UHGV virus genome: UHGV-0119008
Length of the DNA: 12,477 nt
Direction: 5' to 3' (one strand)
From: a virus
Shown here: piece after piece, positions 9,001 to 12,477 of the stretch
Layout of the letters: every line of letters starts with the position of its first letter
How positions within the stretch are numbered: the first letter of the stretch is position 1
Program-made: the position numbers

Positions 9001-12000
9001 GCTGAACTTGAAGCATACAAAGAAAACACGCCAGCGGCACTAAATGAGGCGTTTAAACACTGGAATTTAGCTGTGAATGCCTTTGAGCACCTCTCTAAGC
9101 GTGTAGAGATGCTCTGTAAGCGCGAAAACGCATACCTGACAGCCGATCAGGTATGGGAATTATCAAACTGGATAGAAGATATTGAATCTGATGTTCGCTA
9201 TGTGGGAGATGGACTTGTTGAACTAGCGCAACGCTTAGGCGCTACTATCACAGAAGAATAAAAAAAGCAACAAAAAAGTTGTAAAATATCTTGACATTCC
9301 ATCTATTGTATGTTAATATAATTATATAGGGGTGATTATTTTTCCTTTATTGGTTCGATATTAAAAATTCTTCCTGTCATTAAAGGGGAGTAAAATCTCC
9401 GCTCCCCGCTTCTTCTCCTCCTTAAGTAAATACTGTGCCATTATACCTCTTTGTTATGCATACATCTTGGAGTATGCATAACATAGGGTAATTACATAGG
9501 TATGAGTTAATAAAAGGCGGCTTTAAATGCTGCCTTTTATTTTGCCCGTTATACAACTTAAAAGTTGTATTTCTTACTTTAAACAAGGTAACAAGGTTTA
9601 TATAAATGTTGTTCTTAAATGATAAAGAGCAAATCATCAAGTATAAAGATGAAATGCTGAAAATTAATCCACAAATTACCGAAATGGTAGCTAAATACGC
9701 TGGGTGTTCTGTAGAGGAAGTAGAAAGATGTGTTGAAAAATATTTTTCTCCTTCTTCTCCGTCTACACCTTCCCTTAATGAATTAATCAAATTAAAAGCT
9801 AAGGAGATTACTAAATGATTATTGATTTAGACACTCTGTTTCCAGTTCGAAAGACTTTCACGGATATTGTAAGTTATTGTACTGATCCGTTTGCCTCTGT
9901 AGAAAGCAAGGTTTTTGCTTCTCTTCCTGCTGATGTTGAGTGCGGCGACTTGATCACCAGCACTGGCGCTAAATATGAATCAGGAGATGATATTTATGTT
10001 GTTATGAGTGAATTTGTAACGGCTGGAGAAAACAAGCCTGTAGATGTGCTACGTAGCAATGCTGGGCTTGTATGCATCAAAGCTGATGCGCTGAATGCTG
10101 TAAGTGAAGCAGCAAAAACAGCATTAATTAAAAAAGGCTTTCAGCTTGAAGGGTTCCATTCTGTTTTCACTTCTTAATAAAAGGAATAATAATAAATGAT
10201 TCTAGGTAATGATTACGTTGATTTAGCTCCTCTGTTCTCTGCGCATAGCACTAGAAATTATCTACTTTCTACTCTCGACTTCACTGATCCGGTGGGCGTT
10301 AGTTCTCATAAAGTAGCTGTTTCCCAGCTTGTCGAAAGCAACGAATCTCTCTTTAACAAAGAGACAAGCCGTTTTAGTTCTGAACACAATGTTACTAAGC
10401 GAGAACAAGGTAAAGAATGGCTGATCGAAATCCCTTACTTCCTGCGTGAAGATGTGATCCGTCCTTCTGATGTTCAAGGCAAGCGTAAGCCTGGCACTGA
10501 TTTTCAGGAAACACTCACTGATATTTATGCTGACTATGTTGCTAAACACCACGTAGCGTATCAGCGTACAAAAGAGAGCGTGCTGGCTGCATCTCTGTTT
10601 AGCGGTAAAACTTACACGCCTAAAACTGATGATGTTCTTATCGAGTGGAGCAAGCTGTTTAACGTATCAGCTATGAAAGCCACTGTGAACGCTTCCAGCA
10701 CTGACACCACGAAGATTTTTAAAGAATTTGATCAGATTGCTACTGACATTATCGAAAAAGCACAGAGTCAGGCGGCGGCTGTAGAGCGAATTGTTGTTTT
10801 CTGTAAGCCGGAAGCCTTCTCTGCAATTCGATTCTCTGCTGGTATGGCAAACGCATTCCAGTATGTAAGCCCACTGGAAGAGGGGAACGTTGTGTATCAG
10901 CGTCGTGACCTGCTGCCAGGGGTGACAGCGTTCACTATTCCAGGAACTAACATTGATGTTGTTAAACTGGTAGATCCGCTACACCTGGCACATATGGCCG
11001 CAGACGCTGTAGCTGTGCCTAAATTCTCTAAGGGTAGCGGAATTTATACCAACATCTACGGGGCTGCTTCCAGCACCTTTGAACTGATTAATGCCGCTCC
11101 TGCTGAGGTGTATAGCTATAGCTATGAATCTTCTCGTGGTGATGCTGTTAACGTTGTTACAGAGAATAGCCAGATGGTGGTAAACCACGGTGTAGGCTTC
11201 TCCGTTCAAATCACTGTTAAATAATATTTTAACGTGTAATAGAGGCGTGGCGTGAATAACACGCTTCGCCTTTTTTTATTTATTTTTAAATTTTGAGAGG
11301 TGATTAAAATATGGAAGTGATTTTGAAATCAAAAAATGGTGTACACGTACATTTAGATGCTAATGATTCTAGAGGCTTGTTAAATCTGAAATATCTATGT
11401 TCTCTCTTAGATGTTCCCTATGAAGGAGTAAAAGCCCGTATGTTCAGACTAAACGAGAGTATTGATCAGGCTCTACACCATTTCTTAAGCAAAGAAGGTG
11501 GTAAAAATGATTAATAAGGGGATTTTAAATGTTAGAAATTAACACTTCTAAAATTAAGAACACAGTTACATTTAGTGTAGATAAAGACAGCTTGAAAAAA
11601 GCGAAAGACTCTATTACAGGCTTAAAGGAATTCGCAGAGAACATTAAGCCAGCTAAATTAAGATTTGATACTGTCACTAAAGGCTATAAGAAAGCACAAA
11701 GTGAAGTAGACAAGATTGCCCAGCAAAAAGCGAAAAACGAAAAACAGAATCAAAGAGCACAAGCTGCCGCAGCAAGAGCACAGGCAAGGCAACAGCAACA
11801 AATAGCAGCACGTAAAGAGAAAGCAGAATTAAAACTCCTCGATGTGTCAAGCTCTATCAGTGCAATGCACCGTCTCTCTGTAGCTGAACAATACAAAGCT
11901 ATTGCACAGGCTAGAGAAATTGCCCTCCAATATGAAAGAGGCGCTATTAGTCTGGCACGTATGAATAGCCAGATGAAACGCTTACAACAGCAACAACGTA

Positions 12001-12477
12001 AGATTAATGGCAACAGAAAAGCACAATTAGCCCCCGTTAAGGGAGGAGGATCAGGGAATTCCGCCACTATGGGCGCTCTGTTATTTGGAGGCGCTACGGC
12101 TGCTGCTGGCGTGATGGCTGTTAGTAAAGCGTCGGAGTTTGTTAGTAGCAGTTTCGCTAACGCAGAGACCCAAGGGGAGCTAATCCAACGTGCAAGGCTT
12201 GGCGGTGTAGACGTTAACCAGATGTATAATATTACAGAATGGGCGTATAGAAACGGCGTTGACTCTATGATGGGTGATCAAGGGGCTAGGAAATACCTGG
12301 ATCAGATGAAAGATGTTAGGGAACGTGCCGCAAAATCCTACAGTGAAGCTGAATTGGTGAAAGACAAGAAAACCGGAAAATCTGAATGGAAAGGCGGTGA
12401 TAATGCTATTAATGAACTTCTAAACTGGATTTGCCCCTATATTTCCAGACATCTGTTATCACTTAACCCATTACAAG

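Follow-up and report, generated by a model that had tools for sequence, protein, structure and literature searches.

Introduction

PLE, P4 and SaPIs, all satellites of bacteriophages, remodel the capsid protein of their helpers. All PLEs of Vibrio cholerae, whose helper is the virulent T=13 myovirus ICP1, also encode their own tape-measure protein (TMP) and a tail chaperone, and some of them a baseplate hub, with 20-41% identity to the proteins of ICP1 (2025 study, PMC11838301). The shorter PLE TMP is selectively incorporated, which gives rise to chimeric tails that are ~10 nm shorter, and the same study notes that tmp genes are also present in satellites that are unrelated to PLE and found outside the Vibrionaceae (PMC11838301). 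ICP1 in turn has Odn, in which a copy of the DNA-binding domain of PLE RepA is fused to a T5orf172 nuclease, and which cuts the PLE origin (PMC8263062). The cf-PICIs, whose helpers are temperate, have the entire module for heads and packaging, with portal, protease, head-tail connectors and small terminase. Here, we analysed a stretch of 12,477 nt, the virus genome UHGV-0119008 (the window, by which we mean this whole stretch), which is a piece of Escherichia coli chromosome with 99.6% identity to isolate AF3. It holds the left three quarters of an integrative element of 12.3 kb (the island), which lies in tandem with another island at tRNA-Thr. Because the island brings its own capsid and TMP genes together with an exact copy of a genome-end sequence of phi92-like phages, it is most likely an undescribed satellite of these phages.

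Results

Structural genes of the island are related to those of phi92

An earlier note on this DNA had described positions 9606-12477 as an orphan capsid module, viewed against the gene order of lambda-like phages. The open reading frames (ORFs) of this region, with 70, 120, 342 and 67 aa plus a terminal ORF, were found at the coordinates it named; the ratio of nonsynonymous to synonymous substitution rates (dN/dS) among E. coli copies is given in brackets:

9291-9545, plus strand: promoter-like site TTGACA-17-TAATAT (9291-9319), leader of ~225 nt and terminator-like hairpin (~9514-9545), before the capsid operon
9606-9818, plus strand: helical protein of 70 aa, encoded by the gene that opens the structural operon (0-0.24)
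9815-10177, plus strand: 120-aa protein, in the position of the phi92 cement/decoration protein gp123 (0-0.19)
10196-11224, plus strand: 342-aa major capsid protein (MCP) with HK97 fold, gpE family, by Pfam, PHROG and AlphaFold/Foldseek (0.08-0.14)
11311-11514, plus strand: 67-aa conserved protein with a helix-turn-helix (HTH) resembling sigma region 4, directly upstream of the TMP gene (0-0.085)
11529-12424, plus strand: first 298 codons of the TMP gene, truncated by the insertion sequence IS2; intact orthologues have 608-613 aa

Profile search and structure prediction both confirmed the gpE-like capsid protein. The 342-aa protein covers the whole Pfam model Phage_cap_E (PF03864) with 53.7 bits at a cut-off of 22.9 and also matches phrog_29 'major head protein'. 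Its AlphaFold model (pLDDT 73.7) is closest to the phiTE capsid 9cul (Foldseek E 7e-17, TM 0.65-0.69), followed by the capsids of ICP1, Bas63, Sf14, Chi and lambda. Encapsulins, which share the HK97 fold, appear among the lower fold matches, and the promoters of the operon are of the host type, as one would expect if a mobile island had put the protein to a non-parasitic use, such as a capsid-like compartment of its own making or a particle formed independently of any helper. We find such a use hardly credible, since its nearest relatives in structure and sequence form the capsids of genuine phages, namely the phiTE/ICP1/phi92 clade, a TMP and a tube initiator (see below) would be meaningless without the tail tube and sheath that the island lacks, and neither cargo-loading nor portal/terminase genes are present.

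What kind of phage do these genes come closest to? The comparison with lambda did not hold, as the structural genes are kin to those of virulent myoviruses of ~148 kb of the phi92/phAPEC8 type (Stephanstirmvirinae). A tblastn search with the MCP returned neither a lambda-like nor an E. coli phage, just Pseudomonas myoviruses with ~25% identity, and the kinship to phi92 gp124 emerged from direct comparison, with 22% identity over the full length (E 5e-10). In phi92, cryo-EM identified gp124 as the protein of the T=13 capsid, gp123 as a trimeric cement protein, gp134 as a trimeric TMP with its C-terminus in the baseplate and gp135 as a hexameric tube initiator (2026, PMC13450770). The terminal ORF, which the earlier note had called tape-measure-like, belongs to a true TMP: the intact 609-aa orthologue matches phrog_16051 'tail length tape measure protein' (E 2e-52), and the island TMP aligns over its full length with gp134, with 55% identity in the first 66 residues, 26% in the rest and a conserved C-terminus. 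The island TMPs have 608-629 aa compared to 659 aa in phi92, i.e. they are ~50 residues shorter with phi92-like N- and C-termini kept. In the window, the TMP homology ends at 12425 after residue 298, and the remainder of the gene lies past IS2 in AF3. In intact copies, the TMP gene is followed by a gene for a 237-aa tube-initiator homologue (Pfam Dit_like, E 3.5e-29; 61% identity to gp135) and then by an integrase gene.

The island order of small ORF, 120-aa protein, MCP, 67-aa protein, TMP and tube initiator corresponds to the virion module of phi92 and Justusliebigvirus minus gp125-gp132, with homology for three proteins (gp124, gp134 and gp135). The divergence from that module is very uneven (61% for the tube initiator, ~26-55% for the TMP, 22% for the MCP), the TMP is shorter, and the 120-aa and 67-aa proteins have no detectable similarity: BLASTP and hhalign gave none for the 120-aa protein with gp123 or for the 67-aa protein with gp133. 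The label 'decoration-like' for the 120-aa ORF is weak and stands on size, position and one weak fold match (model pLDDT 60; top BFVD match a head decoration protein, E 0.027, TM 0.40), but not on sequence or profile similarity to gp123. PDB profile searches with the 67-, 70- and 120-aa families gave weak or spurious matches, and the 67-aa protein has a weak profile match to SigW region 4 (E 0.04). Could the 70-aa protein be a small scaffold or assembly factor? Such a role may be considered for this first gene of the operon.

The near-consensus sigma70-type promoter with its leader and hairpin (9291-9545) may be a point of helper-dependent control, or an antitermination or riboregulatory site. 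In other genera, gaps of 560-730 nt likewise precede the structural operon. A late-promoter motif shared with the helper was considered as a further link, but the structural genes of phi92 and of the island both have host-like promoters of the TTGACA type, and the motif is hence not discriminating.

A genome-end sequence of phi92 is copied in the island

Two non-coding segments of the island match the genome-end regions of phi92:

4787-4853, plus strand: helper genome-end mimic, candidate terminase recognition/cleavage site, composed of a 40/40-nt match (4787-4826) and a conserved CCCCAAATATC box (4843-4853)
6490-6511, plus strand: 22-mer AATTAAAAATAAGGGGTCTAAA, which shares 21/22 nt with non-coding DNA at the right end of phi92 and Paula and follows the genome-end mimic in colinear order

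Positions 4787-4826 are identical in 40 of 40 nt (44 of 46) to phi92 318-357 on the opposite strand, and the flanks show no similarity. The annotated direct terminal repeat (DTR) of phi92 is 343 bp long, and its inner end, position 343, falls inside the shared block between GGTGCT and TAACG. For phage BME3, the termini were set by PhageTerm to a DTR of 342 bp (PMC12210895). The BME3 record begins at AACGCGATTTTCAGCG, inside the 40-nt block and at most 1 nt from the phi92 DTR boundary, which lends independent support to this position; several further phage records start 317 nt ahead of the block. A motif GTGCTTAACG..CCCCC..AAATATC is kept, in the same orientation and position, in islands of E. 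coli, Klebsiella, Citrobacter, Buttiauxella and metagenomes and is also present in a Klebsiella phage of the Stephanstirmvirinae. An inverted copy of the AAATATC box was not found in the island. The block lies outside any conserved ORF, the phi92 frame closing after 23 codons. Based on this sequence match, the cis site of the island corresponds to a genome end of the likely helper and is a candidate packaging signal.

The window lacks the right end of an intact integrative element

Which part of the element does the window contain? The following features mark its limits:

3652-3670, plus strand: attL-like junction in degenerate form, left over from the 3' end of tRNA-Thr, where the island starts; the match to tRNA-Thr-adjacent islands begins at 3654
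4275-4433, plus strand: 52-aa basic ORF, 'hypothetical' in RefSeq copies
12425-12477, strand not applicable: IS2 terminal inverted repeat, outside the island, interrupting the TMP gene; its inverted counterpart is at 1-55

Since both ends of the window (1-55 and 12425-12477) are the same IS2 terminal repeat, one copy inverted, the window probably represents a contig whose assembly stopped at copies of IS2. The insertion in this window is strain-specific; IS2 also splits the TMP gene in two IMG/VR copies (loci L017 and L027). From ~3652 rightwards the window belongs to a second element, which forms a clean 12.3-kb unit directly at tRNA-Thr (thrW) in strains such as 89-3156. There, the intact element sits between tRNA-Thr and a tyrosine integrase, with direct repeats at the tRNA 3' end and beyond the integrase. 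In locus L002, a 20-bp att core, ACTCCTATTATCGGCACCAT, flanks the 12.3-kb element at 14999-15018 and 27277-27296. The right end that is cut off from the window, comprising the remainder of the TMP gene, the tube-initiator homologue, the tyrosine integrase (Pfam Phage_integrase E 3e-17, plus DUF6538) and attR, is complete in other E. coli strains.

The earlier note had seen no terminase, portal, protease, major tail, lysis or integrase gene. Inside the window this is correct, but integrase and attR lie just past its IS2-bounded edge. In Pfam and PHROG scans of the ORFs of the intact 12.3-kb element, genes for portal, terminase, protease, sheath, tube and lysis were all missing, and the first three were not found next to the intact copies either. 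The virion genes of the intact element are thus MCP, TMP and tube initiator beside small ORFs, i.e. an incomplete virion and packaging set.

The same architecture recurs across Enterobacterales under purifying selection

Is this architecture peculiar to one strain? We found 53 cluster representatives of the MCP with 37-97% identity, the named sources being E. coli, Citrobacter, Klebsiella, Enterobacter, Cronobacter, Dryocola, Sodalis and Serratia. The layout is shared by loci of K. pneumoniae, Serratia, Citrobacter, Buttiauxella, Kluyvera and metagenomes, whose capsids are 37-64% identical across genera: a gene-poor region, small ORFs, an initiator-like winged helix-turn-helix (wHTH) protein, proteins of ~70 aa and ~120 aa, MCP, a protein of ~65 aa, TMP, a variable gene and the integrase. 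The TMPs of these loci have 610-630 aa, and the best matches of the Klebsiella TMP are TMPs of Stephanstirmvirinae. Because the tube initiator is confined to the E. coli branch, the structural core consists of MCP and TMP. In E. coli, the 4.5-kb structural module has a match in 447 of 5426 complete genomes and is present to at least 80% in 287 of them (about 5-8%); every placement lies on the chromosome, and the median number per genome is one. Among the E. coli copies, the low dN/dS of the MCP is found at dS of up to 0.38, the small ORFs and the tube initiator range from 0 to 0.24, and the frames are intact in nearly all copies; for the structural ORFs together, dN/dS amounts to 0.02-0.2.

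These observations bear on the question whether the island is merely what decay has left of an integrated phage, formerly complete and akin to the phi92-like phages, and no longer has a function. A mere subset of virion genes, a TMP gene cut by IS2 in this copy and other island debris around thrW would be expected of such a remnant. Against it stand the minimal gene set and order, which hold from E. coli as far as Serratia, where capsid identity is down to 37%, the low dN/dS and intact ORFs in place of relaxed selection, the clean att repeats and the intact integrase. Moreover, the records of Stephanstirmvirinae are phages of ~145-150 kb isolated on lytic hosts, and we saw no integrated full-length relative. 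We therefore consider decay very unlikely. The earlier note had offered two origins, a satellite that depends on a helper and a prophage with heavy deletions or rearrangements. The former is favoured by the recurring gene order, the intact ORFs, the integrase with att sites and the genome-end copy.

The initiator-like protein shares its N-terminus with a phage-encoded putative nuclease

Upstream of the structural operon, the island carries a set of regulatory and replication genes:

6856-6884, plus strand: sigma70-type promoter close to the consensus (TTGACA-17-AATAAT, TG-extended), upstream of the regulatory and replication genes
6998-7376, plus strand: two small ORFs of 62 aa and 71 aa, candidate regulators, the 71-aa protein being an Arc/CopG-like ribbon-helix-helix protein
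7406-8083, plus strand: 225-aa wHTH protein, replication-initiator-like, with a lambda O-like or DnaD-like N-domain (Pfam, PHROG)
8100-9261, plus strand: three conserved ORFs of 92, 136 and 121 aa under purifying selection

The 'CopG-like/Rep cassette' of the earlier note is weakly supported, in its first part by a match of the 71-aa protein to the Arc-like repressor family phrog_582 (E 0.004) and in its second by the 225-aa protein, which matches Pfam HTH_36 and the replication-initiator families phrog_270 (E 9e-11) and phrog_391. The positional equivalents of the 225-aa protein in other genera match replication-initiator families as well. A replication helicase or primase was not found among the ORFs of the island.

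The first ~100 residues of the 225-aa protein are 82-97% identical (90-96% at the nucleotide level) to the N-terminus of a Phapecoctavirus protein. This protein is a chimera of 328-329 aa, found as gp053 of Mt1B1_P17 (L004 3042-4028) and, unannotated, in BI-EHEC (L038 1511-2500), in which the island-type wHTH is followed by a second wHTH and a C-terminal GIY-YIG-like domain; the latter matches phrog_681 'endonuclease' with E 2e-18. By analogy to Odn of ICP1, some Phapecoctavirus phages appear to counter the island with a candidate anti-satellite nuclease.

A gene-free region contains a candidate origin and a conserved structured element

About 2.5 kb of the island (roughly 4450-6990), which include the genome-end mimic, have no convincing genes. 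Two further features were located here:

4902-5830, strand not applicable: candidate replication origin, proposed from ATTACACAG repeats with exact copies at 4902, 5248, 5599 and 5677
5846-6260, plus strand: conserved structured non-coding element of ~400 nt (nhmmer and RNAalifold)

The ATTACACAG repeats have 12 matches at up to one mismatch compared to 3.3 expected, a number that was reached in none of 200 shuffles. The candidate origin further comprises a pair of 19-nt repeats, GGTAGGTCAnnGTGAnCTA, at 5716-5756, with an AT-rich tract following at 5760-5830. The ~400-nt element was matched by nhmmer in L005 (5460-5867), L009 (1777-2139), L011 (3340-3747) and L037 (5648-6142) and lies at 17506-17953 in L002; across genera, it is better conserved than the neighbouring proteins. 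From five sequences, RNAalifold predicted a fold with hairpins and a three-way junction; of its 54 pairs, 13 show compensatory double changes. The gene-free region gave no match in Rfam (at gathering threshold and at E<=1) nor a tRNA or tmRNA with ARAGORN, and no counterpart of the element was found in the compared fragments of phi92, Paula and Mt1B1_P17. The element may be a non-coding RNA (for immunity, priming or packaging) or a single-strand origin element.

In the same region, the members from Klebsiella, Serratia and metagenomes have an extra tyrosine recombinase of 183-205 aa that consists of the catalytic domain only and is encoded just left of the genome-end mimic, on the minus strand in all cases (L005 2968-3585, L008 3138-3689, L009 264-845, L011 1710-2327). 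No remnant of it was found in the E. coli element. Does it serve the resolution of dimers or concatemers? It may do so. The accessory cargo varies among copies; in Klebsiella, for example, a Dam methylase is encoded within the gene-poor part of the island (L005 4394-5083).

A second island lies to the left at thrW

The left part of the window, 56-3650, belongs to a different element in tandem, with a PerC regulator and a pRiA4b ORF-3 protein, and is the right part of an island at thrW that is seen at L001 9646-15080 and L029 1-7444. This left island has its own integrase, a 473-aa 'phage DNA ejection protein', an Abi protein, the PerC regulator, the pRiA4b ORF-3 protein and a 701-aa protein annotated as 'P22-gp16 family' in AF3 and as 'hypothetical' in RM10386, the ejection proteins being of P22 type. 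It has no capsid, portal or terminase gene and may be a second element that carries solely DNA-delivery proteins of the virion. The Abi family protein, which adjoins the 12.3-kb island in O26 strains (L029 5450-6427), belongs to this neighbour.

Discussion

Based on the sequence comparisons above, we consider it probable that the island is a helper-dependent satellite of virulent phi92-like myoviruses (Stephanstirmvirinae) and the representative of a new satellite family. How could such a satellite propagate? Infection by the helper would trigger excision and replication of the island. The helper terminase would then recognize the genome-end mimic, so that island DNA of unit length is packaged. 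The island MCP, perhaps together with the 120-aa and 70-aa proteins, would form a small shell on the portal, scaffold and connectors of the helper. Volume scaling from phi92 (T=13, 148.6 kb) suggests that 12.3 kb would fit a shell of about T=3, for which the PLE genome of ~18 kb in a T=4 capsid serves as a calibration. In otherwise helper-built tails, the island TMP would replace that of the helper, and in E. coli the island tube initiator would likewise do so; the shorter TMP with its helper-like ends points, by analogy, to a chimeric-tail strategy of the PLE type. Such substitutions would probably also lower the yield of the helper. The island would thus do more than redirect capsid assembly, as the earlier note had it: it probably builds capsids from its own MCP and joins them to chimeric tails.

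Several observations weigh against this reading. The MCP is highly diverged from that of the helper (22% identity), which bears on its fit to the helper portal and scaffold. A scaffold, protease or TerS-like gene was not recognized, and none of the proteins of 70, 120 and 67 aa could be firmly assigned. The genome-end copy covers a single DTR end, and the sequence of the other phi92 end is absent from the island. The promoters of the structural operon are host-type and sigma70-like, and a helper trigger is not evident. In IMG/VR, the matches are uncultivated viral genome (UViG) records of 19.6-76 kb with identifiers in the style of isolate genomes, none of them element-sized (~12 kb). The matches of the Phapecoctavirus chimera to the nuclease domains MUG113 and T5orf172 stay just below the Pfam thresholds. 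Finally, the copy in this window is itself probably non-functional, because IS2 interrupts its TMP gene.

Could the diverged capsid, TMP and tube initiator instead be dominant-negative decoys of a defence-only island, which poison the assembly of phi92-like phages without being transferred by them? The structural homologues keep the ends that would interact with helper proteins (the TMP termini and the tube initiator at 61% identity), the IMG/VR search gave no element-sized contig that would point to packaging, and interference with tail assembly is described for satellites and PICIs (PMC11364771, and for PLE Rta PMC11838301). However, decoys need neither a genome-end copy, an initiator/iteron module, nor an integrase with att sites; PADLOC matched none of ten island ORFs to a known defence family; and the spread of a single architecture through several genera speaks for efficient horizontal transfer. 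Since interference and transfer usually coexist in satellites, defence is a partial rather than an exclusive rival, and as the sole function of the island we regard it as unlikely.

How does the island compare with the described satellites? By analogy, the satellite that we propose would work most like PLE. Both are integrative islands of similar size with a virulent myovirus as helper (for the island, the presumptive one), both have their own replication initiator (for the island, a candidate) with swappable alleles and their own shorter TMP, and in both a hub or tube-initiator-type protein occurs in some members only. Odn of ICP1, a chimeric nuclease with the DNA-binding domain of the satellite initiator, has its putative counterpart in gp053 of Mt1B1_P17. 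In contrast to PLE, which remodels the helper capsid with the external scaffold TcaP, the island has its own MCP; its hosts are Enterobacterales and its predicted helpers Stephanstirmvirinae, and its cis site copies a DTR end. It also differs in its tyrosine integrase, as the PLE integrase is of the large serine type. We saw no kinship in sequence to PLE: the PLE-type families (large serine integrase, RepA_N initiator and TcaP) were absent from our Pfam and PHROG scans, and a direct comparison with PLE sequences was not run.

With cf-PICI, the island shares a capsid protein of its own with HK97 fold and the need, presumed for the island, of a helper for tails. Unlike cf-PICI, it combines the MCP and a possible decoration protein with proteins of the tail interior, and profile scans gave no portal, protease, TerS or connector. 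P4 integrates into E. coli, is ~11-12 kb in size and has a packaging site identical to that of its helper, a smaller capsid and the decoration protein Psu. With P4-like satellites, the island shares the host, the integrative lifestyle, a similar size and a site identical to that of its likely helper, and a smaller capsid is predicted for it as well. P4, however, forms its small capsids from helper gpN via Sid, encodes the alpha primase-helicase and has no capsid or TMP gene; the P4 hallmarks psu, sid, delta, alpha, eps and alpA had no match in the Pfam and PHROG scans of the island ORFs. While PLE, P4 and SaPIs act on the capsid protein of the helper, the island family brings its own. By gene content, as judged from sequence, the island is outside the definitions of cf-PICI, P4-like satellites, PICI and PLE.

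In summary, the parts combine into a picture of satellites that are widespread in Enterobacterales, build small capsids from a single MCP of their own on helper portals, are packaged from a DTR end, form chimeric tails, carry the ~400-nt structured element and are opposed by Odn-like nucleases. That all of these elements hold together seems to us an evenly balanced proposition. The literature that we searched contained no paper in which satellites are connected to phi92, Justusliebigvirus, Phapecoctavirus or Stephanstirmvirinae. To our knowledge, the satellites described in E. coli (P4-like, PICI and cf-PICI) exploit temperate phages, and the island, if our reading is true, would be the first PLE-like system in this species and a counterpart to the arms race between ICP1 and PLE, chimeric tails and an Odn-like counter-weapon included. 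It would also represent a new minimal form of capsid-size control, in which a satellite brings just its own capsid protein. The precise copy of the DTR end offers a handle on how the terminase of phi92-type phages recognizes genome ends. Stephanstirmvirinae are a phage group used in therapy, and a satellite of theirs that resides in ~5-8% of the complete genomes of E. coli would be a concealed factor in the host range and efficacy of phages now being gathered for this purpose.

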